A stretch of 25,418 nucleotides of DNA from Candidatus Hydrogenedentota bacterium (lineage in GTDB: Bacteria > Hydrogenedentota > Hydrogenedentia > Hydrogenedentales > SLHB01), in contig JARKSN010000152.1 of assembly GCA_029974275.1 (NCBI GenBank), positions 1 through 25,418 of the forward strand, written 5' to 3'. Below the pieces are notes generated by a model. It saw only the letters and a program-made list of their open reading frames with translations, was not told the origin of the DNA and made no database searches. Below are positions 6,084-20,402 of the stretch, piece by piece; position 1 is the first letter of the stretch; each line of letters starts with the position of its first letter. A program made the translations under genes and the position numbers.

Positions 6084-6440
6084 ATGACGCTGGACACCTT
6101 GATCACGCGCATCGGGGCGCGATGGATTGTCGCCGGGAACGCTTCGCATATCGCCATTTGCGGGGCGTATGCGGGGGACCGTGTCAGCGACCTGCTGAAT
6201 CATGTTTCCGAAGACACCCTGTTGATCACCCACCTCTCGAACTCCAGCCTGATTCGCCTTATCGAACTGATGGATGCGCGCGCGATTTGTCTAGCCGGCG
6301 GCGTGGAGCCGGACGACGGGCTTGTGGCCGTCGCACGCGAACAGAACGCTTCCCTGGCGGTGTCGCCTTCCGGAATGTATGAGACTTGCGGCAAAATATA
6401 TGCGGCTTTGTCGGAGTCGCAACACGGCGGCGCGCCATGA
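6084..6440 (+). CDS. Small DRTGG-domain protein (hydrogenase-associated)
   Basis: YAGDRVSDLL...LLIT.L.N...GMYETCGKIY pattern of the DRTGG proteins found upstream of hydABC loci. Confidence 0.8.
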   Translation: MTLDTLITRIGARWIVAGNASHIAICGAYAGDRVSDLLNHVSEDTLLITHLSNSSLIRLIELMDARAICLAGGVEPDDGLVAVAREQNASLAVSPSGMYETCGKIYAALSESQHGGAP

Positions 6441-7978
6441 ATACAGCCACCTATGCGATAGATGGCGGGAATTACGAGCAGGGCGGCCTTGCCTCGAAGC
6501 AACTCAAGGAAATGCTCAAGAAAATCGGCGTCGATGCGGCGGCGGTGCGCAAGACGATGATCGCCGCCTACGAGGCCGAGATGAACGTCGTCATTCACGC
6601 GCGAAAAGGAGTGATGAAGGTTGCCGTCGATCCCTCGCACGTGGACGTGGCCGTGATAGACGAGGGACCGGGCATTCCCGACATTGATCGCGCCATGACG
6701 GAAGGGTTTTCGACGGCTCCGCCTGTCGCCCGGGAACTGGGTTTCGGCGCGGGGATGGGGTTGCCCAATATCAAACGAAACAGCGATCGTTTTTCATTGC
6801 AGTCGACCGTCAACCAAGGCACGCATCTGCGTTTTGCCATCTATTTCGCCCCGCAACGGACGGAGGCCTCCGTTCCCAATGCCGTCCATATTCTCAACGA
6901 AAAATGCCGGCAATGCCTGATGTGCCTGCATGCATGTCCGACGCAGGCCATGCGCATGCGGGACGCCCAGCCGCGCATTCTGGATCATCTGTGCATCGAC
7001 TGCACGTCATGCATCGCCGTGTGCGAAGCAGGGGCGCTCGCATTGAATTGCCCCCCCGCGATCGCATCCCCGGAAGTTGCGACGGTCCTGGTCGTGCCGG
7101 CTTCTTTTTTCGAACAATTCGGCGCGGGACCTGGCCCCTCGGAGATCGTCGCGGCGTTGCATGGCATGGGTTTCGCCAGCGTTCGCAGCAGCGCGGAATG
7201 GGAATGCGCCCTCCGCAACGCCGTGGACGAATATGCGCAGTGCGGGGCGGTGGCACGGCCCGTCTTGTCCCCGGTGTGTCCGGCCATAGTCAACCTTATA
7301 CAGCTCAAATTTCCGTCGTTGATTGCGCATGTGGCTCCCTTCCTCACTCCCATCGAGGCCGCGCGCGAAGAATTGAGGGCGATGTCTGCTGCATTCGTTC
7401 CCGCGTGTCCGTCGCAGCAGACGGCCCTGCGTGCAATCGGGACAGATCCGCAACGCGAGATCGTCGATCCCCATGCGCTCCGTTCTCTTGTGGCCCCGCG
7501 CGTTGCGGGGACCAAGCGCGCTTTGGCGGATGCTCCGCAAGGCGCATCCGCGCCAGCGTTCGAGGTGAGCGGCGTCCGGCACGTTCTCAAAGTGCTCGAC
7601 GCCATCGAAAACGGCGAGATGGACGACTGCGACGTGATCGAGCTGTTTGCGTGCGATCAAGGATGCTTCGGATCGCCCATCTGGAAAGAGGCTCCGTTCG
7701 TGGCGCGCCGTCGGTTTGAGCGAACGGGCGGAGGCGTCGGCGCAAATGACGCGGCCATGGCTCTTCCTCGCGAGAAGACGCTGCAACCACGTCCGGGGCT
7801 GCGGCTCGATAGGGACATGGCGCGCGCCATCGAAAAGCTTGCGCAGATCGACGAACTCGCGCGCACCCTGCCCGGCCGTAACTGCTGCGTCTGCGGCGCG
7901 CCAACTTGCGCCGCGTTGGCCGAAGATGTCGTGGCGGGCAGGGCAACGGTGGATGCGTGTGCGTATAGGCAAGCGTAA
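6437..7978 (+). CDS. RsbT-like anti-sigma/Ser-Thr kinase (HATPase) fused to 2x[4Fe-4S] ferredoxin, [FeFe]-hydrogenase-like domain and C-terminal FeS domain
   Basis: ATG 6437 overlaps the DRTGG stop (ATGA). Kinase boxes YEAEMNVVIHA, DEGPGI, GFST, GFGAGMGLPNI. Ferredoxin motifs CRQCLMCLHACP and CIDCTSCIAVCE. H-domain-like SPVCPAIV / PACPSQ / ELFACDQGC. C-terminal LPGRNCCVCGAPTC..LAEDV...C. Confidence 0.85.
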   Translation: MNTATYAIDGGNYEQGGLASKQLKEMLKKIGVDAAAVRKTMIAAYEAEMNVVIHARKGVMKVAVDPSHVDVAVIDEGPGIPDIDRAMTEGFSTAPPVARELGFGAGMGLPNIKRNSDRFSLQSTVNQGTHLRFAIYFAPQRTEASVPNAVHILNEKCRQCLMCLHACPTQAMRMRDAQPRILDHLCIDCTSCIAVCEAGALALNCPPAIASPEVATVLVVPASFFEQFGAGPGPSEIVAALHGMGFASVRSSAEWECALRNAVDEYAQCGAVARPVLSPVCPAIVNLIQLKFPSLIAHVAPFLTPIEAAREELRAMSAAFVPACPSQQTALRAIGTDPQREIVDPHALRSLVAPRVAGTKRALADAPQGASAPAFEVSGVRHVLKVLDAIENGEMDDCDVIELFACDQGCFGSPIWKEAPFVARRRFERTGGGVGANDAAMALPREKTLQPRPGLRLDRDMARAIEKLAQIDELARTLPGRNCCVCGAPTCAALAEDVVAGRATVDACAYRQA

Positions 7979-8060
7979 CGACGTCGGCAAAATATGGCGC
8001 TCGTTCTGCGTCAGGAGGTCCGTTACAGACCGGACCATCCTGGACTCTGAAGTATCGCAC

Positions 8061-8097
8061 GTGAGGAGTGCGCAGTATGACGGCTGCTGCGGTGGCG
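8061..8097 (+). repeat. Degenerate copy of the RBS + 5' end of the second DRTGG gene (partner copy 8485-8521)
   Basis: gtgaggagtgcgcagtatgacggctgctgcggtggcg vs gtgaggagtatgcagcatgacggtagctgagatggcg: 30/37 identical, ungapped. Confidence 0.8.
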
Positions 8098-8152
8098 AAG
8101 CGATGGGATGGATGCGTCGATGCCGCGACGAAGGAGAAAGGAGAAACCTCGG

Positions 8153-8440
8153 GTGAGTAACGCGAGCGTTCAAGGCAATCTGGGTGACGTCGCATCCGCG
8201 TCAGGGCGACGGGTGAGTTTGTTGGCGGTGGCCAGCCTTATCCTGGGACTGGCGGCGTTCGCATTTTCCCTTTTGCCCTTCGTGGGCGTTCCGCCTATTG
8301 TCTGTGGCGTTCTTGCCTTCCGTCGCATTCGAGCCTCCCACGGCTCATTGACGGGGGGACTCTATGCGGGAATAGGCATAGGATTGGGAATTTCTGCGCT
8401 ACTTGTTATGGCATTGTTCTTCCTGCGCACACCCAACTAA
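8153..8440 (+). CDS. Small membrane protein, DUF4190-like
   Basis: GTG 8153 after AAGGAG. LAVASLILG...PIVCGVLAFRRIR...GGLYAGIGIGLG is the DUF4190-type hydrophobic pattern. Confidence 0.7.
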   Translation: MSNASVQGNLGDVASASGRRVSLLAVASLILGLAAFAFSLLPFVGVPPIVCGVLAFRRIRASHGSLTGGLYAGIGIGLGISALLVMALFFLRTPN

Positions 8441-8500
8441 CCCGAAGTGTGCGTCGTATGGCTTTTGTGGGGCTACTATTCGAAGTGAGGAGTATGCAGC

Positions 8501-8854
8501 ATGACGGTAGCTGAGATGGCGGACGCGTTGGGGTTGGAAAATTTGACGCCGGAGATTACGTTGGACCCGGGGCGTGCGGTGACGGGCGGGCATGCGGCGG
8601 ATTTGTTAAGCGATGTTCTGGCGCATGCGCGGCCGGACGGGGTGTTGATCACGGTGCAGGTGCACATGAACGTCATCGCGGTGTCGGTGCATGCCGATCA
8701 GGCAGCGGTCATTTTCTCTGCCGGGCGTCGTCCCGATGATGAGGTCCGTCTAAAGGCGATTGAGGAGAACATTCCGCTATTCGCGTCCGATCGTTCGACG
8801 TTTGACATTGCGGGCAGACTGTATTCCCTTGGCCTTCGAGGGACGCCCATGTGA
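8501..8854 (+). CDS. Second small DRTGG-domain protein
   Basis: VTGGHAADLLSDVLA...ITVQVHMNVIAV...A.EENIPL...FDIAGRLY. GAGGAG RBS. Confidence 0.85.
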   Translation: MTVAEMADALGLENLTPEITLDPGRAVTGGHAADLLSDVLAHARPDGVLITVQVHMNVIAVSVHADQAAVIFSAGRRPDDEVRLKAIEENIPLFASDRSTFDIAGRLYSLGLRGTPM

Positions 8855-9585
8855 AGCAGTTCGAGGCGGATCTGCATATTCACACGGCATTGTCGCCGTG
8901 TGCGCTCGAAGAGATGACGCCGCGCAGCATTGTCCGGCAGGCGCTCTATGAGCACCTCGATATGATTGCCATCTGCGATCACAACACCGCGGGCAACGCC
9001 GCCGCCGTGAAACAAGCAGCAGGAAACGCTCTCGCAGTCGTCGCGGGCATCGAAATCACGACCGCTGAAGAAGTCCATGCGTTGGGTTTGTTCCCCGACG
9101 CGGAATCGGCCGAATGCGTCGGGGAAATCGTCCGCGCGACGCTGCCCGATCTTTCGCGCAGGGCCAAGAATTTTCCGGAGCAAACCCTCCTGAACGCCGA
9201 AGACGAAGTCGTGGGCGCAGAGACCAAAATGCTGGGGGCGGCGTCTTCCTTGACGTTGAGCGATGCCGTGGCCCTCATCAAAAGGCATGGAGGTCTGGCG
9301 ATCGCCTCGCACGTGGACCGGCCATCTTTTTCGGTGCCGAGTCAACTGGGCCTGTTCCCGGAGGGGGTCGCGTTCGACGCCATAGAGATAAGTCCCATCG
9401 GGCTTGAGGAGAAACGTCACCGCATCTTTGACCGCCTCGGTTTGCCGATGCTTGTCTCCTCCGACAGCCATTTCCTTTCCGATATCGGCTGCGGTCTCAG
9501 CATGCTGCGCATGCGCGAGCCGGTTTTTAGCGAGTTGGCCCTAGCCCTGAGGGGCGTGGGCGGAAGGCGGTGCCGCATTGCATGA
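8851..9585 (+). CDS. PHP-domain phosphoesterase
   Basis: DLHIHTALSPC, ICDHN, GIEITTAEEVH, SHVDR and SSDSH metal-binding motifs. GTG start overlaps the upstream stop. Confidence 0.9.
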   Translation: MKQFEADLHIHTALSPCALEEMTPRSIVRQALYEHLDMIAICDHNTAGNAAAVKQAAGNALAVVAGIEITTAEEVHALGLFPDAESAECVGEIVRATLPDLSRRAKNFPEQTLLNAEDEVVGAETKMLGAASSLTLSDAVALIKRHGGLAIASHVDRPSFSVPSQLGLFPEGVAFDAIEISPIGLEEKRHRIFDRLGLPMLVSSDSHFLSDIGCGLSMLRMREPVFSELALALRGVGGRRCRIA

Positions 9586-10117
9586 ATTGTCGTTGCACAT
9601 ACTCGATCTTGTCGAGAACTCCATTCGGGCGGGTGCGTCGATTATCTGTGTGACGGTCTTCGAGGAACCTGACGCCGACCTTTTGGAGATTTGTATCGAA
9701 GACAATGGTCCTGGGGTAGACGTTGCGCCCGAGCAGGCGATGGATCCGTTCTATACCACCAAGGCAGGCAAGCGCACGGGGCTGGGGTTGAGCATGTTTC
9801 GCGCGGCGGCGGAGCAAGCGGGAGGACGTCTGAAATTGTCGCGTTCGGAATGGGGCGGCGCGGCCGTGCGCGTCACGATGCAACTGGGACACATTGATCG
9901 CGCGCCGCTAGGAGACTTGGCCGGCACGCTTTCGATGTTGGTGTGCGCCAACCCAGGGATCGATTTTTGGTGCCGCATTTTTTCCCAAGGCGCCGATCAG
10001 TGCATACGATCGGGCGTTTTAGAACAGGAAATTTCCCGTAATGGCGGCGATGAATTTGCCGTTGCGAAGCGATATGGCGAGGCCGTTCGCATCGCAACAG
10101 CCTCGCTCAACGCGTAG
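9578..10117 (+). CDS. Stand-alone HATPase_c (histidine-kinase-like ATPase) protein
   Basis: ELSLHILDLVENSIRAGA (N box), EDNGPG, DPFYTTK, TGLGLS, HIDRAPLGDL. No HisKA domain visible. TTG start. Confidence 0.85.
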   Translation: MHELSLHILDLVENSIRAGASIICVTVFEEPDADLLEICIEDNGPGVDVAPEQAMDPFYTTKAGKRTGLGLSMFRAAAEQAGGRLKLSRSEWGGAAVRVTMQLGHIDRAPLGDLAGTLSMLVCANPGIDFWCRIFSQGADQCIRSGVLEQEISRNGGDEFAVAKRYGEAVRIATASLNA

Positions 10118-10318
10118 CGTTTTATTCGCAGCACATTTCCGAAGCCGCTATGTCTACCGCGAAAAACATCACGGTATCCCTTTGGGGGGGGCGGGCGGTC
10201 TCTTCCTTTTTGCGCATAAATCGACGTTTAAGCACGGATCGCCGCGTGTTTTTCTGGAATTTATTGTGACAAATCCCTTGGATAAGACGGTATTATTTAG
10301 AAAAACGCCTTTGAAACT

Positions 10319-10327
10319 TGCTATAAT
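10319..10327 (+). promoter_or_regulatory. Extended -10 promoter element upstream of the hydrogenase operon
   Basis: TGcTATAAT, a perfect TGnTATAAT, in an AT-rich 310-bp intergenic region about 100 nt before ATG 10427. Confidence 0.65.
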
Positions 10328-10426
10328 CCCACCTTCCTTTGACTTGTGGGCCCATAGTCTTGGCTCGCGATTCAAAATCACTGTTGGGCGGTTGGTCGTT
10401 GCAGTTAGGTAGAAAGGGAAAAGTTC

Positions 10427-10984
10427 ATGGCCAAGAAAGAAGTAGCGTGCGCTTGTTCCGAAGAAGCGAGCGAGGAAGAATTGCTGGCTCGCGTCGATGA
10501 CATCATCGCCGAGTACCGCGACAAACCGGGCGCCCTCATTCCGGTGCTCCAAATGACGCAAGCGATATTCGGATACTTGCCGGAATCCGCGCTGAAGCGG
10601 ATCAGCCTCGGTCTTAACAAGTCCTACAGCGAGGTTGCGGGGGTCGTCGGATTCTACTCCTTCTTTTCGACCGTTCCGCGCGGCAAGCATATGATTCGGG
10701 TGTGTCTGGGAACGGCGTGTTACGTGCGCGGAGGCAAGCAAGTCCTGGACGCGCTCAAACAGAAGCTGCAGATCGATGTCGGCGGCACCACGCCCGATCG
10801 CATGTTCTCCCTCGAGGTGGCGCGGTGCTTTGGCGCGTGCGGCCTTGCGCCGGCGATCATGGTGGACGACGACGTGCACCAGCGCGTGAAGCCCACCAAG
10901 GTTCAGAACGTCCTGTCGCAATATATCGAAAGTGAAAAACAAGCCGCGAAGGAAAAGGCCGCAACCGCGCGCAAGGCGCGCTAA
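10427..10984 (+). CDS. hndA: [FeFe]-hydrogenase NuoE-like [2Fe-2S] subunit (HndA/HydC)
   Basis: LIPVLQ..Q..FGYLP, FYSFF, VCLGTACYVRGG, RCFGACGLAP. Confidence 0.9.
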   Translation: MAKKEVACACSEEASEEELLARVDDIIAEYRDKPGALIPVLQMTQAIFGYLPESALKRISLGLNKSYSEVAGVVGFYSFFSTVPRGKHMIRVCLGTACYVRGGKQVLDALKQKLQIDVGGTTPDRMFSLEVARCFGACGLAPAIMVDDDVHQRVKPTKVQNVLSQYIESEKQAAKEKAATARKAR

Positions 10985-11004
10985 CCGTCAGGGGGAAGGG
11001 GCAT

Positions 11005-11382
11005 ATGGCCAACAAGATCAAGAGCCCGCAGGACCTGCTCGCGCTGAAGGAAAAAGCGCAGGCGGAAATCGACGTGCGCGCGGGCGTGAAGGACATACAG
11101 ATTACGGTGCACATGGGCACATGCGGCATAGCCGCGGGCGCTCGTGAAGTTCTTGCCTCTTTGGTAAAGGAACTCGATGCCGGCGCGGTGAAGAACGCGA
11201 CCCTGCGCCAGACGGGGTGCGCGGGCCTGTGCGATCGGGAACCGATGCTCACCTTGACGGACAAGGCCGGGCAGCAGTTCCGCTATGGAAAGCTCGATCC
11301 GAAGAAGGTCCATCGCATCGTGCGGCAGCACGTTGTCGAAGGAACGCCTGTTATCGAATGTCTTATCAGTAACGCCAAATGA
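11005..11382 (+). CDS. hndB: Thioredoxin-like [2Fe-2S] ferredoxin subunit (HndB/HydD)
   Basis: VHMGTCGIAAGAR...QTGCAGLCDREP...H...G..V. Confidence 0.85.
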   Translation: MANKIKSPQDLLALKEKAQAEIDVRAGVKDIQITVHMGTCGIAAGAREVLASLVKELDAGAVKNATLRQTGCAGLCDREPMLTLTDKAGQQFRYGKLDPKKVHRIVRQHVVEGTPVIECLISNAK

Positions 11383-11419
11383 AGCCCTTATTCATCATCA
11401 CGAAGGAGAGGAAATAGGA

Positions 11420-14400
11420 ATGAGTAATGTGAGGTCGCATGTTCTCGTATGTGCGGGGGCGGGATGTGTCGCTTCGGGCGCGCTGGAACTGAGCGCCGCG
11501 ATTCAGGCGGCGCTGCAAAAACACGGCATCGAAGACGAAGTGAACGTCGTTGAAACAGGTTGCCTCGGACCGTGCGCGGCAGGCCCCGTGGCGGTGGTGT
11601 ACCCGGACGGCGTCTTTTATCAAGGGATCACCGCCTCGGACGCCGAGGAAGTCGTCGAGGAGCATTTGCTCAAGGGCCGCATCGTCGAGCGCCTGAATTT
11701 CAAAATCCCCGCAACCGAGCAGATCGTGCCGGCGTTGCAGGAGATCGGATTCTTCAAGCAACAGCAGAAGATCGTGCTGCGCAACTGCGGCGTGATCGAT
11801 CCGACCCGTATCGAAGAATACATCGCGCGTGACGGCTATCAGGCGCTCGCCAAGGCCCTGACCGAGATGTCGCCGGACGACGTGATCGAGATGGTCAAGC
11901 AGTCTGGCCTGCGCGGTCGCGGCGGCGCGGGGTTCCTGACGGGACTCAAGTGGAGCTTCACCCGCAAGGCGCCGGGTGACAAGAAGTACGTGCTGTGCAA
12001 CGCCGACGAAGGCGATCCCGGCGCCTTCATGGACCGCAGCGTTCTCGAAGGCGATCCGCACAGCGTGATCGAGGCGATGGCCATCGCGGCGTACGCCGTG
12101 GGTTCCGACCAAGGTTACGTCTACGTCCGCGCGGAATATCCCCTGGCCGTCGAGCGCCTCAACAAGGCGCTCGATCAGGCTCGCGAACTGGGCCTGCTGG
12201 GCGAGAACATCATGGGGTCGGGCTTCAACTTCGACCTCGAAATCCGTATGGGTTCCGGCGCGTTCGTATGCGGCGAAGAAACCGCACTAATGCGTTCGAT
12301 CGAAGGCAAGCGCGGCGAGCCGCGTCCGCGTCCGCCGTTCCCCGCCATCAAAGGCCTGTGGGACAAGCCCAGCCTGCTGAACAATGTTGAAACCTACGCG
12401 AACATCCCGGTCATTCTGTTGAAGGGCGCGGAGTGGTTCGCTTCGATTGGCACCGAGAAGAGCAAAGGCACGAAGGTGTTTGCACTCGCGGGCGCGGTGA
12501 ACAACACGGGCCTCGTCGAAATCCCCGTCGGCACGCCGTTGGGCGAGATCATCTACGATATCGGCGGCGGCATCCCGAACGGCAAAAAGTTCAAGGCCGC
12601 GCAGATGGGCGGTCCGTCGGGCGGATGCATCCCGAAGCAGCATCTGAATGTCCCGGTCGATTACGAGTCCTTGCAGGAACTCGGCGCAATCATGGGGTCC
12701 GGCGGGCTCATCGTCATGGACGAAGACACCTGCATGGTGGACATGGCCCGCTTCTTCCTCGATTTCGTGCAGGATGAATCGTGCGGCAAGTGCGTCCCGT
12801 GCCGCGTAGGCACCAAGCGCATGCTCGAGATCGTCACGCGCATTTGCGAGGGCAACGGCGAGGACGGCGACATCGAGAAGCTCATCGAACTCGGCGAGCA
12901 GATCAAGGAGACCTCGTTGTGCGGGCTTGGCCAGACTGCGCCGAACCCTGTGCTCAGCACGATTCGCCATTTTCGCGACGAGTACGAGGCCCATATTCGC
13001 GACAAGCATTGCGTTGCGGGCGTTTGCCCGGGCCTGGTGCGCGCCCCGTGCATGAGTGCGTGCCCGGCGGGCGTGTACGTGCCGGGATTCGTGTCGCTCG
13101 TTGGCGAGAAGCGCTATGCAGAGGCGTTGAAGGTGCATCGCGAACGCAATCCCTTCGTGTCGGTCTGCGCGCGCGTATGCTTCCACACCTGCGAAGACAA
13201 ATGCCGTCGCAGCAACCTGGACGATTCCTTGTCGATTCGCGGCCTCAAGCGTTTCATGGTTGACCAGGAAGTCACGGTGCAATTGCCCGAGATTCAGGAC
13301 AACGAGGAAAACGCCAAACGCAAGATTGCCGTGATTGGCGCGGGGCCGGCGGGCCTGTCGTGCGCCTACTTCCTCGCGCGGCTGGGCTATCGCCCGCGCG
13401 TGCTCGAAGCGGAGCCGCGGCCCGGCGGCATGCTCGTGCAGACCATCCCCGCGTACCGCCTTCCGCGTGAAGAGCTGGCCCGCGAGGTCCGCATGATCGA
13501 GCGCATGGGCGTGGATATCGAAACCAACATGCGACTCGGTCGCGACTTTACGCTCGACAGCCTGCGCAAGGAAGGCTACGAGGCCGTCTTCGTGGGCGTT
13601 GGCGCGCCGGACGGCACGCGCATGCGCATCCCCGGCGAAGAGGCCGACGGCGTGACGGAAGCCATTCGCTTCCTGCGTGAATACAACCTGCGCGGGTCTG
13701 TACCGGTGGGCAAGAACGTGGTGGTCATCGGCGGCGGCAACGCGGCGGTCGATGCCGCCCGCACCGCAGTGCGCCTGGGCGCGGAGACGGTCACGATTCT
13801 CTACCGTCGCACCCGAGACGAGATGCCTGCGTATCAGGAAGAAGTGGAAGAGGCCGAGCACGAAGGCGTCCACCTGCAAACCCTTGTGGCTCCGGCGGAA
13901 ATCGTGGTCGAGAACGGCTGCGTGGCGGGCGTGAAGTGTCATCACATGTGGTTGGGCGAGTTCGACCGCAGCGGTCGTCGCCGTCCCGAGGCGGCCAAGG
14001 ATGACCAAGCCTTCATCGTCAAGGCCGATCAGGTCATCGCGGCGATTGGGCAGAGCTTGGACGTAGAAAGACTGCTCGATGGCGCGACCCCGAAATTGAA
14101 CGCGTGGAAATTCCTTGCAGTGAATCCGTTGACGGGGCAGACGTCGATAGAATGGCTTTTCTCGGGAGGCGATTCGGCCAGCGGCCCGTCGTCGGTGGCC
14201 GAGGCCGTGGGCGCTGGCGAACGCGCGGCGATAGGCATCGACAAGTACCTGACCGGCAAGGAGCATGCATTCTGGCGGACGTGGTGCGAGGTGGATACGT
14301 CATTTGATCCGGACGCAGACATCCCCGATTACCCGCGCGCGAAAATGAAGTTGTTGCCAATCGGAAAACGCCGTCACAATTTCAATGAAGTGGAATTGCC

Positions 14401-14470
14401 CTTTACCGAAAATGTGGCCGTGCGCGAGGCAAAACGTTGCCTGCGTTGCGATTACCGTGGAAACCAATAG
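11420..14470 (+). CDS. NuoF-like FMN/NAD subunit (HndC/HydB) fused to a GltD/NfnB-like FAD/NADPH oxidoreductase module
   Basis: ATG 11420 after GGAGAGG. N-terminal 2Fe-2S (CAGAGC, GCLGPC). NuoF motifs GLRGRGGAGF, NADEGDPGAFMDR, GAFVCGEETAL, GGPSGG, SCGKCVPCRVG, SLCGLG. Then PCMSACPAG, CARVCFHTCEDKC, GAGPAG, GGGNAAVD, YRR and EAKRCLRC. Confidence 0.92.
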   Translation: MSNVRSHVLVCAGAGCVASGALELSAAIQAALQKHGIEDEVNVVETGCLGPCAAGPVAVVYPDGVFYQGITASDAEEVVEEHLLKGRIVERLNFKIPATEQIVPALQEIGFFKQQQKIVLRNCGVIDPTRIEEYIARDGYQALAKALTEMSPDDVIEMVKQSGLRGRGGAGFLTGLKWSFTRKAPGDKKYVLCNADEGDPGAFMDRSVLEGDPHSVIEAMAIAAYAVGSDQGYVYVRAEYPLAVERLNKALDQARELGLLGENIMGSGFNFDLEIRMGSGAFVCGEETALMRSIEGKRGEPRPRPPFPAIKGLWDKPSLLNNVETYANIPVILLKGAEWFASIGTEKSKGTKVFALAGAVNNTGLVEIPVGTPLGEIIYDIGGGIPNGKKFKAAQMGGPSGGCIPKQHLNVPVDYESLQELGAIMGSGGLIVMDEDTCMVDMARFFLDFVQDESCGKCVPCRVGTKRMLEIVTRICEGNGEDGDIEKLIELGEQIKETSLCGLGQTAPNPVLSTIRHFRDEYEAHIRDKHCVAGVCPGLVRAPCMSACPAGVYVPGFVSLVGEKRYAEALKVHRERNPFVSVCARVCFHTCEDKCRRSNLDDSLSIRGLKRFMVDQEVTVQLPEIQDNEENAKRKIAVIGAGPAGLSCAYFLARLGYRPRVLEAEPRPGGMLVQTIPAYRLPREELAREVRMIERMGVDIETNMRLGRDFTLDSLRKEGYEAVFVGVGAPDGTRMRIPGEEADGVTEAIRFLREYNLRGSVPVGKNVVVIGGGNAAVDAARTAVRLGAETVTILYRRTRDEMPAYQEEVEEAEHEGVHLQTLVAPAEIVVENGCVAGVKCHHMWLGEFDRSGRRRPEAAKDDQAFIVKADQVIAAIGQSLDVERLLDGATPKLNAWKFLAVNPLTGQTSIEWLFSGGDSASGPSSVAEAVGAGERAAIGIDKYLTGKEHAFWRTWCEVDTSFDPDADIPDYPRAKMKLLPIGKRRHNFNEVELPFTENVAVREAKRCLRCDYRGNQ

Positions 14471-14503
14471 CCGGCCTCGGCTTGAGATAGGAGATGCGCG
14501 ACG

Positions 14504-16276
14504 ATGCCAACCCTGACCGTTGACAACGTATCGGTGGAAGTGCCGGACGGCACAACCATCTTCGAGGCCGCCCGCAAGGCCGGCGCGAAGATCCCCAACC
14601 TTTGCTACATGAAAGACCTGCAAGCGATCGGCGCGTGCCGCGTGTGCATGGTGGAAGTCGAGGGCGCGCGCAGCCTTGTCGCGTCATGCGTGGCGCCCGT
14701 TGCCGAAGGCATGAAGGTCAAAACCAACACCCGCAAAGCGCGCGAGGCCCGCAAGACCGTCGTCGAGCTGCTGCTGTCCGACCACGAAGGCGATTGCCAG
14801 ACCTGCGATCGCAACGAGGACTGCGAACTGCAAGCCCTCGCGCGCGACATGGGCATTCGCGATATCCGCTACCCCGGCGAGAAAAGCAAGCGCATTCTCG
14901 ATTCGAGCACCCCCGCCCTGATGCGCGACACGTCGAAGTGCGTGTTGTGTCGCCGCTGCGTGACGGTGTGCAGCGAAGTCCAGGGCGTGGGCGGCATTTT
15001 CCCGCAGAGCCGCGGTTTTGAAACCGTGGTCGGCCCTGCCTTCGATAGCACGCTCGACGACATCGTCTGTGTGCAGTGCGGCCAGTGCGCGGCGGTGTGC
15101 CCGGTGGGCGCGATCGTCGAACGCGATCAGACGGCGGACGTATGGGCGGCGCTCGACGACCCGAACAAGACGGTTGTGGTGCAGACAGCCCCTGCCATTC
15201 GCGCGGCGCTCGGCGAGTGCTTCGACTACGAACCCGGCACGCTCGTGACGGGAAAAATGACGGCGGCGTTGCGTCGTCTTGGCTTCGATGCGATATTCGA
15301 CACGAACTTCACAGCCGACTTGACGATCCTCGAAGAAGGCACGGAACTGCTGACGCGACTGAAGATGGCGCTTGTCGACAAGGAGCCGGTCGCGTTGCCG
15401 ATGTTCACGAGTTGCTCGCCGGGATGGATCAAGTACATCGAGTACTTCTACCCCGACATGTTGCCAAACGTGTCGACGTGCAAGTCGCCGCAGCAGATGT
15501 TCGGCGCGCTTGCGAAGACGTATTACGCGGAAAAGATCGGCAAGAAGCCGGAGGACATGTTCGTCGTATCGGTGATGCCATGCACCGCGAAAAAATACGA
15601 ATGCCAACGTCCCGAGATGAACGCCAGCGGTGTGCAGGATGTCGACGTCGTGCTGACGACGCGCGAATTGGGCCGCATGATCAAGCAGGCGGGCATCGAC
15701 TTCGACAGCCTGGCCGATGAGGAGATGGACGCGCCGATGGGATTGTCTTCGGGCGCGGCGGACATTTTCGCGAACACGGGCGGCGTGATGGAAGCCGCGT
15801 TGCGCACGGTATGGGAAGTCGTGACGGGCAAGGAACTTCCCTTCGCGAACCTGCACGTGGCGCCGGTGGCGGGACTCGAAGGGATCAAGGAAGCGAGCGC
15901 GACGATCGAAGGGGCCCTGCCGGAATGGTCGTTCCTGAACGGCGTGACGGTGAAGGTGGCCGTGGCGCATACATTGGGCAACGCGCGCGAACTCATCGAA
16001 CGCATTCGCGCGGGCGAAGCGAGCTACCACTTTATCGAAATCATGACCTGCCCCGGCGGCTGCATCGGAGGCGGCGGACAGCCGCGCGTCACGACGAATG
16101 ACGTGCGCAACGCGCGCATCCAGGCTATTTACAAGGAAGACGAAGGAAAACAGCTCCGCAAGTCGCACGACAACCCGGCAATCAAACAGATCTACGCCGA
16201 GTTCCTTGGGCATCCGCTGAGCGAAAAATCGCATCACCTGCTGCATACGCACTACCACGAGCGTTCGCGGGTATAA
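14504..16276 (+). CDS. hndD: Group A [FeFe]-hydrogenase catalytic subunit (HndD/HydA)
   Basis: N-terminal 2Fe-2S, His-ligated cluster (H..DCQTC.....C), 2x[4Fe-4S]. H-cluster motifs FTSCSPGW, MPCTAKKYE, EIMTCPGGCIGGGGQP. C-terminal HHLLHTHY. Confidence 0.96.
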   Translation: MPTLTVDNVSVEVPDGTTIFEAARKAGAKIPNLCYMKDLQAIGACRVCMVEVEGARSLVASCVAPVAEGMKVKTNTRKAREARKTVVELLLSDHEGDCQTCDRNEDCELQALARDMGIRDIRYPGEKSKRILDSSTPALMRDTSKCVLCRRCVTVCSEVQGVGGIFPQSRGFETVVGPAFDSTLDDIVCVQCGQCAAVCPVGAIVERDQTADVWAALDDPNKTVVVQTAPAIRAALGECFDYEPGTLVTGKMTAALRRLGFDAIFDTNFTADLTILEEGTELLTRLKMALVDKEPVALPMFTSCSPGWIKYIEYFYPDMLPNVSTCKSPQQMFGALAKTYYAEKIGKKPEDMFVVSVMPCTAKKYECQRPEMNASGVQDVDVVLTTRELGRMIKQAGIDFDSLADEEMDAPMGLSSGAADIFANTGGVMEAALRTVWEVVTGKELPFANLHVAPVAGLEGIKEASATIEGALPEWSFLNGVTVKVAVAHTLGNARELIERIRAGEASYHFIEIMTCPGGCIGGGGQPRVTTNDVRNARIQAIYKEDEGKQLRKSHDNPAIKQIYAEFLGHPLSEKSHHLLHTHYHERSRV

Positions 16277-16290
16277 TAGGAGTGAAGGGC

Positions 16291-16318
16291 GGCGCGTCGG
16301 CTGGGCGGCCGACGCGCC
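16291..16318 (+). other. GC-rich stem-loop between hydA and the sensory hydrogenase gene
   Basis: GGCGCGTCGGC-tgggcg-GCCGACGCGCC, a perfect 11-bp stem with no U-tract. Confidence 0.7.
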
Positions 16319-16373
16319 ATCCCCAAGAAGCTGTTCTTCAATGGCACTGTCCAACCGCCGCCGAGGATTCGGC

Positions 16374-18371
16374 ATGGGCATCGTCTCGGCCATACCCGAG
16401 AAGTGCAAGCGCTGTTATGCATGCGTGCGCGAATGCCCTGCCCGCGCCATCAAGGTCGAACAGGGACAAGCCCTTGTCCTTGAAGAGCGCTGCATCGCCT
16501 GCGGCAACTGCGTCAAAGTTTGCACCCAGAACGCCAAGCGCATCCTCGACAATACCCAGGAAGTATGGCAACTTCTTGCGGACGGAAACCCTGTTTTTGC
16601 GTGCTTGGCGCCTTCCTTTCCCGCCGCGTTCCACGAAGACGCCCCAGGATCGGTGATTGCCGCCGTGCGCCGTTTGGGCTTTGCGGAGGTTTGGAACGTA
16701 GGCTTCGGCGCCGAACTCGTCGCTCGTGAATACACGCGTCTGTATGGCGACGTCAAGCACGCCGCAGGAAGAGTTATCGCCACGCCATGTCCGGCGCTTG
16801 TCGCGTATGTAGAAAAATACCTGCCTTCGCTGCGCGCATCGCTCGCCCCGATCGTCTCGCCGATGATTGCGGCGGCTCGTGCGATCCGCCATCGTCACGG
16901 ACCTGACGTCCGCGTTGTGTTCATCGGGCCGTGCATCGCCAAGAAAAACGAAATTCGCGATCCTTTCGTCGCCAACGCTGTCGACAGCGTCTTGACCTTT
17001 AAGGAGCTGTCGATGATGTTCGATGCGAAATCGATAGACCCCGGCGCGCTTGCTCCCGAAGAGTTCGACAGTCCCCCGTGCCTCGTCGGCGGCGCATTTC
17101 CTATTTCGGGCGGCCTGCTCCGGACGGCGGAAGTCACGCCCGACATCCTCGATAACGACATCGTCGTGGCCGAAGGCAAGGATCGCGCGCTCGTCGCCTT
17201 GACGGACGCCGCGGAAGGATCCAGTCAAGCCCGCTTTCTGGATTTGCTGTTTTGCGAGGGGTGCATCAGCGGTCCGAAAATGCTGAACGAACTTGGCCTC
17301 TATGCGCGCAAGGAGCTTCTGGCTCGCTATGTGAACGAACAGCGGCAACGCGTGCAGCGCGAGGACTATCTGCGCGGCATGGAGGAGTTTCGGGCCCTCG
17401 AACTGGGACGATCGTTCACCGCGCAAGACCTGGAACTCCCGCAGCCCACCGAAGAGGAGATCATGGTCGCGTTGCTCGACATGCACAAATTCGAGCAAGA
17501 AGACCACCTGGACTGTGGCGCGTGCGGTTATCCGACATGCCGCGCAAAGGCGATCGCCGTGTGCCAAGGCCTTGCCGAGCCGAGCATGTGTTTGCCGTAT
17601 ATGATTGACGAGTTGGAAGACGCCTGCGAACAGTTGCAGGCCTACCATCGCGACCTGGAGGCCGCGCAGCAACGCCTCGTGCAATCCGAGCGCCTCGCCT
17701 CGATGGGGCAGCTCAGTGCGGGCGTCGCGCATGAACTCAACAACCCGTTGGGCACCGTGCTTATCTACTCGCACATGCTGCTGCGTCACATGAAGGAAGG
17801 CGACGCGAGCCGCGCCGATATCGAGATGATCGTTGGCGAGGCGACCCGCTGCAAAAACATCGTGCGCGGCCTGCTCGATTTTGCGCGCCAGTCTCGCGTC
17901 ACGAAATCGGAGGCGGACCTCGCGCAAATTATCCGCGAAGTCGCGGCGATCATGGCCAAGCGCGCCGAGGATAACAATGTCCGACTCGCGATGGATATCG
18001 AGCCGTTGCCGCGCATGATGATCGATGGGAATCAGATCAAGCAGATGCTGATCAACCTTGTCGGAAACGCTGTCGATGCCATTCATCGCGAGGATGGCCA
18101 GGTCACGCTCCGCGCACGTCGGCCTGCGGACAACGGCCGCGTCATCATCGAAGTCAGCGACAACGGGAAGGGAATTCCGCAGGAAAATCTTTCAAAACTG
18201 TTCACGCCGTTCTTCACAACCAAGGAATTGGGCAAGGGAACGGGGCTGGGGCTGGCGATTTGTTACGGCATCGTCAAGATGCACTCTGGCGACATCACCG
18301 TCCAAAGCGAAGAAGGCGTCGGCACGACCTTCACCGTGTCGCTGCCTGCCGGCGATGTCGGCCAAGCGTAA
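16374..18371 (+). CDS. Sensory group C [FeFe]-hydrogenase (HydS-like) fused to histidine kinase
   Basis: ATG 16374 after GAGGA. 2x[4Fe-4S] ([23 protein letters not shown]). Motifs [27 protein letters not shown]. FeS domain [10 protein letters not shown]...MCLPY. His[11 protein letters not shown]. HATPase DNGKG, PFFTTK, GTGLGL. Confidence 0.9.
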
Positions 18372-18458
18372 TAGGACGACTTAGGGTGGCCCGTTTGTGG
18401 CGAGACATCTTCGAGCGCAGAGGCGGCTGTACACAGCGAATGCAGGGGGAGCGAAGCA

Positions 18459-18881
18459 ATGTCTGAAGATCCCGCGTTGATCATGGCGGTCGACGACGAC
18501 GCCGATTTTCTTGATATCTATCGTCACATTCTCCAACGAGGCGGCTACCGCGTTGCCTGTTGCGCGACGCCGGACGAGGCCGTCGCGGCGATGGAGGAAG
18601 ACCCGCCGCGGTTGATCATCACCGATCTCATGATGGATACGCTCCATTCGGGCTTTACGTTTGCGCGCGCGATACGCCAGGACCCGCGATACGGCCGCAT
18701 CCCTATCATTATCGTCACGGCCGCAGGCAGTCAACGCGGATTCGATTTTCGTCCTCAGACGGGCGAAGATTTAGAGGCCATGTGCGTCGACGCCTATTTT
18801 GATAAACCCGTCGAACCGAAGCAATTGCTCGCGAAAATCGCGGAGTTGCTCGCCGTTTCGAGCCGCGAGGTGGCGACATGA
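18459..18881 (+). CDS. Single-domain response regulator (receiver only)
   Basis: AVDDD, ITDLMM, IIIVTA, DKP. No output domain. Confidence 0.9.
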   Translation: MSEDPALIMAVDDDADFLDIYRHILQRGGYRVACCATPDEAVAAMEEDPPRLIITDLMMDTLHSGFTFARAIRQDPRYGRIPIIIVTAAGSQRGFDFRPQTGEDLEAMCVDAYFDKPVEPKQLLAKIAELLAVSSREVAT

Positions 18882-20356
18882 CCTATTCCCCCCCGCGCAT
18901 CCTCGTCGTGGATGACGAACTCGGGATGCGGGAAGGATGCCGCCGAATTTTGACCGAGGAGGGATTCGAGGTCGAAACGGCGGAAGATGGCATTACGGGC
19001 CTTGATCTCTTTCGCGATCATGGCGGCTTTGCGGTCGCCCTTGTCGATCTCAACATGCCGCGCATGAGCGGCCTCGATCTTATCCAACACATGCGCGAGT
19101 TGGACGACGACATCGTGATTTTCGTCATCACCGCGTATGCGGCGATCGAGACAGCTGTCGAGGCGACGCGGCGCGGCGCATACGGCTACATCCCGAAGCC
19201 CTTCACGCCCGACGAACTCCTGTTGCCCGTGCGCAACGGCCTCGAACGCCGCACGCTCTCGATCGAGACCAAGCGCCTACGCGAGGAACGCGAACGCCGC
19301 TTGCTCGAGGTCGCGTACGAACGCTCGCAATCCAGCACCATTATCGGATGCATGACCGACGGCGTGCTCGTCATCAACCGCGATCGCCAAATCGTGTTGC
19401 GCAATGCCGCGATGATCCGCATCCTGCCTGTGTGCGTTTCCTTGACGCTGTCATCGCCGCTCGAAGCGCTCGCGTGGGACGCCTTGCGCGACATCATCGA
19501 CGAGACGCTGTGCAACGGATCCACGCCAGGCATCGCGTCGAGAGAACTCGTGTTGGACAAGCAGACCTATCTGGCCAACATCAGTCCCATCTTCGATCCT
19601 AGCGGCGAGGTGCTGGGGGCGGTCGCGGTGTTGCGCGACATCACCGAACTGAAAAAACTTGAGACGGCCAAGTCCATGTTCGTTTCGATGGTGGCGCACG
19701 AACTCAAGAGTCCGCTCGCCGCGATCGAGAGCCAGCTCGGCATCTTGCTTCACGGCGCGGTCGAAGACGATCCCGCTAAATCGAAACAGCTTGCCGAGCG
19801 TTCGCTTGTGCGTGCACGCGGTCTGCGCACGATGGTCAACGACCTGCTTAATCTGACTGCCATGGAGACCGGAAATTTCACGTTGCGCCGTCAGCCACTG
19901 GATATTCGCGAACCGTTGCACGCAGCCGTCGACGCCGCACACGACCGGGCGTTGGAAAAGAAAGTCAACATCTCTCTCGACGTCACTCCTGAACTCGACG
20001 GCGTGCTGGTCCTTGCGGACAAGGACTCCATGTTCATGGTGTTCTCGAACCTCATCGACAACGCCGTGAAGTACACGCAGGGCCCCGGCCATGTGATCGT
20101 GACTGCAGCGAAACAAGACTCCGCCGTCCGCGTCATCGTGCGCGACACCGGTATCGGCCTCTCGCCGGACGAACGCGACAACATCTTCGACGAGTTCTTC
20201 CGCGCCAAAAACGAGTACACCGTCCATGTCCCCGGTACCGGCCTCGGCCTCTCCCTCGTCAAACGCCTCGTCGAGATGCACCACGGCCACATCGACGTTG
20301 AAAGCGAACGCGGCAAGGGCAGCGCCTTTACCGTCAGCTTACCAATCGCTGAGTAA
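18878..20356 (+). CDS. Hybrid REC-PAS-histidine kinase
   Basis: ILVVDDE / VDLNMP / KPF receiver. MTDGVLVINRDRQIVLRN PAS domain. VAHELKSPL, NLIDNAVKY, DTGIG, GTGLGL. ATGA overlap with the upstream receiver gene. Confidence 0.92.
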   Translation: MTYSPPRILVVDDELGMREGCRRILTEEGFEVETAEDGITGLDLFRDHGGFAVALVDLNMPRMSGLDLIQHMRELDDDIVIFVITAYAAIETAVEATRRGAYGYIPKPFTPDELLLPVRNGLERRTLSIETKRLREERERRLLEVAYERSQSSTIIGCMTDGVLVINRDRQIVLRNAAMIRILPVCVSLTLSSPLEALAWDALRDIIDETLCNGSTPGIASRELVLDKQTYLANISPIFDPSGEVLGAVAVLRDITELKKLETAKSMFVSMVAHELKSPLAAIESQLGILLHGAVEDDPAKSKQLAERSLVRARGLRTMVNDLLNLTAMETGNFTLRRQPLDIREPLHAAVDAAHDRALEKKVNISLDVTPELDGVLVLADKDSMFMVFSNLIDNAVKYTQGPGHVIVTAAKQDSAVRVIVRDTGIGLSPDERDNIFDEFFRAKNEYTVHVPGTGLGLSLVKRLVEMHHGHIDVESERGKGSAFTVSLPIAE

Positions 20357-20402
20357 CTCCGCTGCCATGGTTTCGGCGTTGCACATGTTGCAGGGCGACA
20401 AT

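Follow-up and report, generated by a model that had tools for sequence, protein, structure and literature searches.

Enzymes of the Bfu family are defined by a conserved BfuBC cofactor set (Schut et al. 2022, abstract). In these enzymes electrons from the A subunit are known to pass through cluster B1 to the flavin mononucleotide (FMN), where NAD+ is reduced, and the mobile [2Fe-2S] domain of the C subunit carries low-potential electrons off to clusters B3/B4 and on to ferredoxin. Among the BfuABC hydrogenases of Hydrogenedentota, Zheng & Huang 2024 (mSystems, PMC11406978) distinguished five sub-types, in a genome-based study that reports no experiments. In their "sub-type I BfuB" (group A3), B3/B4 give way to a "DPD_II" domain and a flavin adenine dinucleotide (FAD)/NAD(P) domain, the gene order is C-(D)-B-A, and relatives were noted in Spirochaetota, Pseudomonadota, Planctomycetota, Verrucomicrobiota, Kiritimatiellota and two Thermodesulfobacteriota. 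Here we analyse a gene of this kind in a 25,418-nucleotide contig from a Candidatus Hydrogenedentota bacterium, hereafter the window; it is C62 among the 342 contigs (4.38 Mb in all) of the source genome, G000. The gene product is the flavoprotein subunit (HydB, or BfuB) of a cytoplasmic four-subunit [FeFe]-hydrogenase, HydC-HydD-HydB-HydA. We consider it about an even call that the C-terminal module of this subunit would act as an NADP(H) port, replacing ferredoxin on the low-potential branch and permitting a ferredoxin-free reaction.

The original prediction for this gene, made from the letters of the window, had implied a novel design. This did not hold: the architecture is widespread, it has been in print from genomes since 2024 as sub-type I BfuB, and the window's copy is one more member. 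The protein has the domains and the C-(D)-B-A gene order of sub-type I, and its homologue from an example genome of Zheng & Huang (L053) is 83% identical in the HydB part and 75% in the module. The text of that article makes no mention of GltD, NfnB, NADPH, glutamate synthase, fused or fusion, and neither Schut 2022 (on the Bfu family) nor Losey 2020 (on the non-bifurcating HydB) mentions "GltD" or "glutamate synthase". Architecture and phyla are the same as in sub-type I; the difference lies in the flavin, for which Zheng & Huang suggested a second bifurcating FAD, whereas the lysine signature described below points to the non-bifurcating Stn type. What is new here is this signature, which argues against a second bifurcating FAD, and the finding of three HydB tails in one genome.

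Architecture of the fusion protein

The hydrogenase operon consists of four genes, and the fusion protein of six segments, as follows.

10427-10984, plus strand: hydC, NuoE-like, encoding the thioredoxin-like [2Fe-2S] protein that carries cluster C1 (Pfam 2Fe-2S_thioredx, 165.5 bits)
11005-11382, plus strand: hydD-like gene for a small [2Fe-2S] protein of 125 residues (Pfam 2Fe-2S_thioredx, 29.4 bits, cut-off 24.8)
11420-14470, plus strand: hydB::GltD-type fusion gene, 1016 residues, with its likely start at ATG 11420
14504-16276, plus strand: hydA, the H-cluster [FeFe]-hydrogenase subunit, 590 residues (Pfam, NCBIfam)
11432-11662, plus strand, within the fusion: N-terminal thioredoxin-like [2Fe-2S] domain of HydB, residues 5-81, Cys 11, 16, 48 and 52 (Pfam 2Fe-2S_thioredx)
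11894-12994, plus strand, within the fusion: NuoF core, residues 159-525, with the FMN/NAD(H) domain (Pfam Complex1_51K, residues 159-330, 153.8 bits), SLBB (Pfam, residues 354-402) and the four-helix [4Fe-4S] domain of B1 (Pfam NADH_4Fe-4S, residues 441-525, 122.1 bits)
12992-13027, plus strand, within the fusion: linker motif H525-x5-C531-x4-C536, the "B2"/Zn site of solved Bfu enzymes and the last HydB-like element
13025-13273, plus strand, within the fusion: Fer4_20 Fe-S domain, residues 536-618, Cys 544, 548, 583, 587, 591 and 595 (Pfam, profile positions 24-109 of 113 only, thus lacking about the first 23)
13322-14218, plus strand, within the fusion: FAD fold (GAGPAG) and NADP(H)-type Rossmann fold (GGGNAA, YRR), residues 635-933 (Pfam Pyr_redox_2)
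14369-14455, plus strand, within the fusion: relocated first segment of Fer4_20 with EAKRCLRC, Cys 1007 and 1010 (profile positions 1-29)

The longest open reading frame (ORF) spanning the fusion runs from 11285 to 14470 on the plus strand. ATG 11420 is preferred as the start because GGAGAGG lies 8 nt 5' of it and because 11285-11382 overlaps the end of the preceding gene; homologues share the same start Met in the alignment. Both this start and the motifs quoted in the original prediction withstood the check, every motif lying at its claimed place in the translation: GDPGAFMD (residues 198-205, from nucleotide 12011), GAFVCGEE (280-287), GGPSGG (397-402), HCVAGVC (530-536, nucleotides 13007-13027, preceded by H525), GAGPAG (640-645), GGGNAA (771-776), YRR (795-797) and EAKRCLRC (1003-1010, nucleotides 14426-14449). 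The hydrogenase partners were likewise as claimed (Pfam, NCBIfam). The matches of the hydC product in NCBIfam are HoxE/NuoE/Fdh-gamma, the HydD-like protein corresponds to the BfuD of Zheng & Huang 2024 (PMC11406978), and HydA carries the Pfam domains Fer2_4, NADH-G_4Fe-4S_3, Fer4, Fe_hyd_lg_C (327.8 bits) and Fe_hyd_SSU.

The division of the protein into a bifurcating-type HydB (residues 1-536) and a GltD-type module (537-1016) is almost certain. Relatives of the module are encoded in 396 stretches (one genome per species); all locus counts below rest on the best 80 of these, which are 62-80% identical to the module. In 76 of the 77 testable loci a single open frame takes in both halves, the exception (L018) being fragmented, so the fusion is not an assembly artefact; a mis-assembled chimera or a chance artefact is thereby ruled out. 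Structure modelling, a check advised along with the original prediction, gave a consistent picture: an AlphaFold2 model built on 52 sequences has a mean predicted local distance difference test score (pLDDT) of 89.1 and a predicted template modelling score (pTM) of 0.85, and each of its halves matches the expected solved chains in Foldseek.

In a PDB sequence search, residues 3-541 gave E-values of 4e-252 to 2e-192 against B subunits of solved bifurcating enzymes, namely those of A. mobile NiFe-HydABCSL, of HydABC from A. woodii, T. kivui and T. maritima, and of Stn and NfnABC; 7q4v_B and 7t2r_B (E about 1e-250) are among the matches. Foldseek aligns the N-terminal half of the model to solved HydB chains with TM-scores of 0.83-0.97 (normalised to the target), and over residues 1-536 the identity to the HydABC and HydABCSL chains (7q4v, 8a6t, 7p5h, 7t2r) is 51-72%. 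With these enzymes the protein shares the N-terminal [2Fe-2S] domain, the FMN site, B1 and the HydC and HydA partners, and it has a putative His/Cys linker site. For ligands we surveyed 69 full-length fused ORFs (the window's included) from the 80 related loci, together with 12 divergent fusions at 34-53% identity; Cys 11, 16, 48 and 52 are conserved in 69 of the 69 close fusions. The FMN/NAD(H) site and B1 (Pfam, PDB sequence and fold matches), the N-terminal [2Fe-2S] domain, and an adjoining NuoE-like C subunit and catalytic A subunit are thus all present, and judged by sequence, the stretch up to residue 536 amounts to a whole electron-bifurcating-type HydB.

The linker motif aligns to AHIRDKKCPAGVC in HydB of A. 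woodii, T. kivui and A. mobile, and in StnB. H525 and C531 are invariant in our alignment A2, and C536 is found in at least 90% of its sequences. The B2 site of solved enzymes is now modelled as zinc bound by three Cys and one His (PMC11829005); three of these four putative ligands (H525, C531 and C536) are aligned here to the solved chains.

The junction had been placed at about 13035, and correctly so: residue alignments to solved HydBs run unbroken through FRDEYEAHIRDKxCxAGxC and end there. Pfam finds no Fer4-type domain 3' of residue 536, and the ferredoxin-docking B3/B4 clusters of a Bfu-type HydB are missing with it. The docking domain of solved enzymes, with two [4Fe-4S] clusters in about 60 residues, is replaced from residue 537 by a module of about 480 residues, which sets the protein apart from bifurcating HydABC. 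Pfam, the PDB search, Foldseek and the alignment to paralogues agree with the predicted replacement of the ferredoxin domain by a complete GltD/NfnB-like module.

The source genome carries two further HydABC clusters, on contigs C326 (L001) and C261 (L002). The HydB on C326 (L001 3075-5183) is 54% identical and collinear up to the same CxAGxC, where it goes into two CxxCxxCxxxCP motifs (Pfam Fer4, residues 611-664). The HydB on C261 (L002 3208-4815) is 40% identical, tail-less, stops just before the linker motif, and has no N-terminal 2Fe-2S_thioredx match in Pfam. The three tails look like three distinct partner choices, and the three clusters of this one genome form a natural three-way comparison of the tail's effect.

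These comparisons bear on the main rival explanation, an uncoupled dual-nucleotide hydrogenase. In this enzyme the FMN/NAD(H) and FAD/NADP(H) sites would each be simply wired to the H-cluster, as in the non-bifurcating NADH-dependent hydrogenases of syntrophs with an NADPH entry added, and with some NADPH:NAD+ transhydrogenase side activity. To our knowledge, the non-bifurcating HydB type as a whole lacks the N-terminal 2Fe-2S_thioredx domain. The window's protein keeps this domain and the His/Cys linker motif, both absent from the non-bifurcating type by sequence search and as far as we know; the tail-less paralogue on C261 lacks the one and ends before the other. An ungated wire between the nucleotide pools would also dissipate the NADPH/NADH disequilibrium. 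Speaking for the uncoupled enzyme, HydBs that lack the 2x[4Fe-4S] tail do not bifurcate in S. wolfei and S. aciditrophicus (Losey 2020; Zheng & Huang, PMC11406978). S. wolfei Hyd1ABC and S. aciditrophicus HydAB (Losey 2017, 2020) share the missing tail with the window's protein, and ferredoxin independence is plausible; their HydBs have nothing in the tail's place, and S. aciditrophicus HydAB is reported without NADP+ reduction (<0.01 U/mg; Losey 2020). Moreover, Stn itself has an NADPH:NAD+ oxidoreductase side activity, and the NCBIfam model matched by HydA here is "NADH-dependent [FeFe] hydrogenase, group A6" (FeFe_hydrog_A6, 910 bits; cut-off 765). We regard the uncoupled enzyme as rather unlikely, and go on with the reading in which the module is the port of a coupled one.

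The predicted NADPH/FAD module

When the module was searched alone against all solved chains, the highest scores were those of C. saccharolyticus NfnA (9bov_A, 392 bits), S. ovata StnC (8oh5_C, 364 bits) and T. sibiricus NfnA (9n5u_A, 343 bits), followed by NfnL/NfnB (5jca_L, 4ylf_B; 281-283 bits), GltD (193 bits) and dihydropyrimidine dehydrogenase (DPD; 181 bits). Foldseek ranked the same chains for the C-terminal half of the model. By similarity, then, no solved chains come closer to the module than the NADPH-entry modules that lie inside the A subunit of the Nfn-Bfu/Stn transhydrogenases. The reference structures of this group (S. ovata StnABC, 8oh5; C. saccharolyticus NfnABC, 9bov/9bp5; T. 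sibiricus NfnABC, 9n5u) have in common with the window's enzyme a NuoEF-type core with an NADPH/FAD module, a proximal cluster held by three Cys and one Lys (predicted for the window's enzyme), EAxRCLxC after the Rossmann folds, and YRR(T/S)xxEMPA.

The placement of the module is different. In Nfn-Bfu/Stn it sits between the [2Fe-2S] and NuoG/Fdh-like domains of the A subunit and feeds the mid-potential path into B1/FMN, with ferredoxin as the low-potential partner; here it ends the B subunit, at the ferredoxin exit, and a true, ordinary hydrogenase HydA serves as the A subunit.

With NfnAB/NfnSL (5jca, 4ylf) and GltD (6s6s, 2vdc) the module shares homologous Fe-S, FAD and NADPH folds (193-283 bits), and it lacks their N-terminal CxxC, the NfnB Glu at the proximal cluster, and an NfnA/S or GltB partner. 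Among the Pfam matches of the window's genes we found no extra catalytic subunit, NfnA/S-like gene or added ferredoxin-like domain in the operon, and no GltB-like gene in the window. NfnAB proper is ruled out by the Lys in place of Glu, the C-terminal motif and the missing NfnA/S-like operon gene. Glutamate synthase GltD proper was rejected given the missing GltB-like gene, the score of 193 bits against 392 for NfnA, and NCBIfam GltD matches below the cut-offs; DPD proper was rejected at 181 bits against the same 392.

The original prediction had also pointed to EAKRCLRC, N-terminal in GltD, at the C-terminus. The position is right: the ORF has two Fer4_20 matches, profile positions 24-109 at 13025-13273 and 1-29 at 14369-14455, the latter weak (20.9 bits, E 8.6e-4, below the cut-off in the Pfam scan of the genome), and the alignments agree. 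The arrangement is not peculiar to this protein, since EAxRC(L/M)xC follows the Rossmann folds in 9bov_A, 8oh5_C and 9n5u_A as well and aligns with residues 1003-1010; it is common to Stn/Nfn-Bfu modules. In the model, residues 971-1010 have pLDDT values of 89-93, which fits a tail that would be packed into the Fe-S domain rather than a loose end.

The eight cysteines of the module (544, 548, 583, 587, 591, 595, 1007 and 1010) are conserved in all 69 close fusions, and in all 12 divergent ones with the exception of C583 (10/12). They would be enough for two [4Fe-4S] clusters if K610, just 3' of the Fer4_20 segment at 13025-13273, ligates one. The FAD-proximal cluster of C. saccharolyticus NfnA is held by C108, C147, C151 and K170 (PMC11829005), and C548, C587, C591 and K610 align to these, a match of alignment and not of a cluster-bearing structure. 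K170 is essential in StnC, and NfnB has Glu at the equivalent position (Stn paper). Position 610 is Lys in 69 of 69 close relatives; of the 12 divergent fusions six have K, four have E, and H and G occur once each.

This signature bears on the suggestion of Zheng & Huang 2024 (PMC11406978) that FAD could be a second bifurcation centre. In such a complex FAD would bifurcate as in NfnB/NfnL and ferredoxin would still be a substrate, so that the enzyme would handle H2, NAD, NADP and ferredoxin. The module is indeed homologous to NfnL/NfnB, and R680, which corresponds to NfnB R201 and StnC R239, is conserved in 69/69. The Glu of the NfnB state occurs in the four divergent fusions just counted, and extra [4Fe-4S] motifs follow the module in 5 of the 19 GltD-type proteins of our core set (by regular expression; Pfam finds an added Fer4 in three, P0155, P0178 and P0236). 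However, K610 is the StnC/NfnA state, in which FAD is non-bifurcating according to the Stn authors, and for this reason a second bifurcating FAD is disfavoured in the close family. The operon, too, offers no NfnA/NfnS-type partner and no extra ferredoxin-like domain, and the genome already has a separate fused NfnAB-like gene. Two bifurcation centres therefore seem improbable to us. Divergent fusions with extra [4Fe-4S] motifs or with Glu at 610 may be functionally different and could still use ferredoxin.

GAGPAG, GGGNAA (of the form GxGxxA) and YRR are invariant in the 69 close members. The GxGxxA form was proposed to bind NADP(H) (Kremp 2020), and LYRRTRDEMPA of the second Rossmann fold is nearly identical to the sequences of the NADPH-using StnC and NfnA, with which it aligns; this agrees with the NADP(H)-type fold that had been predicted. 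GltD-type modules are also part of NADPH:sulfur, NADPH:Fe(III) and other oxidoreductases (Kremp 2020), Nfn1 is described in a review as a sulfide dehydrogenase, and proteins of about 650 residues with NADH_4Fe-4S, Fer4_20 and Pyr_redox_2 exist (P0217, P0219, P0250). The module could accordingly serve a different acceptor or donor, such as polysulfide or sulfur (SudA/Nso), Fe(III) (SfrB) or NADH. But in all those enzymes the module remains the NADPH site, GxGxxA and YRR do not vary in the fusion family, and the operon has no extra catalytic subunit, and we hold this to be the most improbable of the alternatives. The module is probably an NADP(H) port, with some margin for doubt.

Proposed electron path

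In the reading that we favour, the module would be a plain, non-bifurcating NADP(H) port on the FMN-B1-C1 branch that normally ends at ferredoxin. Its distal cluster would replace B3/B4, the low-potential branch would end at FAD and NADP+, and NADP(H) would take ferredoxin's role as the lower-potential partner. The reaction, without ferredoxin, would be

2 H2 + NAD+ + NADP+ <-> NADH + NADPH + 2 H+

In the H2-forming direction NADH and NADPH would be pooled; in the H2-consuming direction NAD+ reduction would help to drive NADP+ reduction. That NAD and NADP would be tightly coupled has in our estimate slightly less than an even chance. That the enzyme would be a ferredoxin-independent bifurcating or confurcating hydrogenase, with NADP(H) as the low-potential partner of the FMN-B1-C1 site, is a somewhat more tentative claim again.

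Several points weigh against this scheme. The cluster wiring from the module to C1, B1 or the linker site is assumed. At 1 bar H2 the reductions of NAD+ and NADP+ are both downhill, and only low H2 or a high NADPH/NADP+ ratio would call for coupling. The module, large and fixed as the pTM of 0.85 depicts it, may be incompatible with the domain movements that gate canonical bifurcation. An NADP-specific hydrogenase of NuoF type, HytA-E, exists (review), which bears on the nucleotide preference of the FMN site, and ferredoxin could bind elsewhere, for example on HydA or HydD. The equivalent of StnC C114, a residue that nears the proximal cluster in one Stn state (Stn paper), is Val or Ile in 69/69, with the extra C583 instead. 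Finally, the original prediction had noted that NuoF-GltD fusions are found in databases, with little biochemistry known for one partnered with an [FeFe]-hydrogenase. They are widespread in related genomes, and our literature searches found no biochemical or structural study of such a fusion.

The organism evidently has a ferredoxin metabolism, given the canonical ferredoxin-type HydABC on C326, a fused NfnAB-like protein and Rnf subunits in the same genome. The NfnA-NfnB-like protein (contig C44, L003 316-2637) has 773 residues and scores 1039 bits with NCBIfam PRK12778 (cut-off 1103); genes for RnfC, RnfD and RnfE lie near it (L003 3575-7477, minus strand). The RnfE-like ORF on C44 has 459 residues, with the RnfE match limited to 258-455. 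The fusion enzyme would be an additional, direct link between H2 and NADPH beside this metabolism.

If the coupling is true, H2 could be a direct source of NADPH for many anaerobes, bypassing ferredoxin and Nfn, or they could dispose of NADPH and NADH together as H2; among their lineages are Hydrogenedentota, Planctomycetota, Lentisphaerota, Spirochaetota, Fibrobacterota and Kiritimatiellia. The potential E'(NADPH) is about -380 mV. With this value and E'(NADH) of about -280 mV (Schut 2022, abstract), we estimate that H2 could be formed up to roughly 150 Pa from pooled NADH and NADPH, compared with roughly 3 Pa from NADH by itself. The enzyme would then exploit the in-vivo gap of roughly 100 mV between NAD and NADP, in a reaction not known so far from any Bfu enzyme, and the modelling of H2 thresholds and redox balances would change for common uncultured bacteria of wastewater and sediment. 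For the Bfu mechanism the enzyme would amount to an experiment made by nature, with the ferredoxin exit swapped for a two-electron nucleotide port, and it would be a simple system for studying electron splitting at a flavin/cluster site, since both products absorb at 340 nm and ferredoxin is unneeded. The value of the finding lies in this open biochemical question and not in this particular gene copy.

A comparable design has been described in the HdrA-NfnB fusions of the anaerobic methanotrophic archaea ANME-1 (Chadwick et al. 2022, PMC9012536), which have an NfnB-like NADPH module inside the ferredoxin domain of a bifurcating flavoprotein. The evolutionary logic is shared, while the host enzyme there, a heterodisulfide reductase, is unrelated; the function is likewise predicted.

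Distribution and evolution of the fusion

A protein search at 90% clustering gave close relatives in abundance: each of the best 120 rows is 962-1052 residues long and aligns over at least 95% of the query at 73-99% identity, and their named sources are Hydrogenedentota, Planctomycetota and the "FCB group". The titles of the best 80 loci name Hydrogenedentota, Planctomycetota, Lentisphaerota, Spirochaetota, Fibrobacterota, Kiritimatiellia and Verrucomicrobiota, among others. The gene order is highly conserved across these loci. hydA lies directly 3' of the fusion in 66 of 67 (median gap 62 nt), hydC lies 5' of it in all 66 testable loci, and a HydD-like gene stands between hydC and hydB in 28 of 66.

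Clustering at 50% revealed many deeper NuoF-GltD fusions, some with a Fer4 domain added after the module. Divergent fusions at 34-41% identity (P0133, P0155, P0178, P0190, P0236 and others) include some without the N-terminal [2Fe-2S] domain. Shorter relatives also occur: the proteins of about 650 residues mentioned above (P0217, P0219, P0250) retain NADH_4Fe-4S alone of NuoF, followed by Fer4_20 and Pyr_redox_2, and P0196 and P0234 (about 490 residues) are free-standing modules whose Fer4_20 match begins at profile position 24-30. All of these align through query residue 1010-1013, thus covering the C-terminal motif, which suggests that the rearranged module circulates as a unit.

A phylogenetic placement, as had been recommended with the original prediction, was made for the NuoF core with 50 of 112 rows (all 19 GltD-type, every second canonical and every fourth tail-less). 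In a FastTree tree and a quick IQ-TREE tree the GltD fusions were scattered among canonical HydBs. This scatter suggested several origins of the fusion, which were not borne out: in an approximately unbiased (AU) test the tree with all 19 fusions as one clade was better by 38.55 log-likelihood units (p-AU 0.795), and a single clade was not rejected.

DNA runs with this stretch are labelled wastewater, activated sludge and digester; one of them may be the source sample. Two metatranscriptome runs of one study, compared with positions 6300-20400 of the window, gave mostly pieces of 20-45 nt inside contigs of other organisms. Two short metatranscriptome contigs of 222 nt (14006-14227) and 266 nt (14199-14464), at depth 2-2.4, fall entirely within the 3' part of the gene and match it without a mismatch. 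They attest presence in an RNA library, not transcription, and we do not count them as evidence.

Genes around the operon

The genes flanking the operon are the following.

8501-10117, plus strand: DRTGG, PHP and HATPase_c genes, accessory or regulatory, directly 5' of hydC (Pfam)
16341-18371, plus strand: sensory-type hydrogenase-like protein fused to a histidine kinase, a probable regulator (Pfam Fer4, Fe_hyd_lg_C with 157 bits, FeS PF04060, HisKA and HATPase_c)
18459-18881, plus strand: response regulator, 3' of the sensor kinase
18878-20356, plus strand: receiver-PAS-kinase hybrid, 3' of the response regulator

The hydrogenase-like kinase, the response regulator and the hybrid kinase together have the look of a two-component system for H2 sensing. 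A homologue of the sensor kinase with more than 50% identity was found 3' in 7 of the 50 testable loci, and a paralogue adjoins the canonical HydABC of contig C326 (L001 6987-8990). On the other side of the operon, the DRTGG/PHP/HATPase_c set also lies 5' of hydC in 19 of the 80 related loci (in L062 without a PHP match). A 123-residue ORF at 10041-10412, which overlaps the HATPase gene, has no family match. Further upstream, positions 6386-7978 on the plus strand encode a protein of 530 residues with HATPase_c_2, a 2x[4Fe-4S] Fer4 domain and a C-terminal PF04060 FeS motif. It has only fragments of the H-cluster domain (45.7 bits; profile positions 26-105 and 190-244), and is similar to the ATPase-bearing hydrogenase-like proteins of "group C1" in Zheng & Huang 2024.

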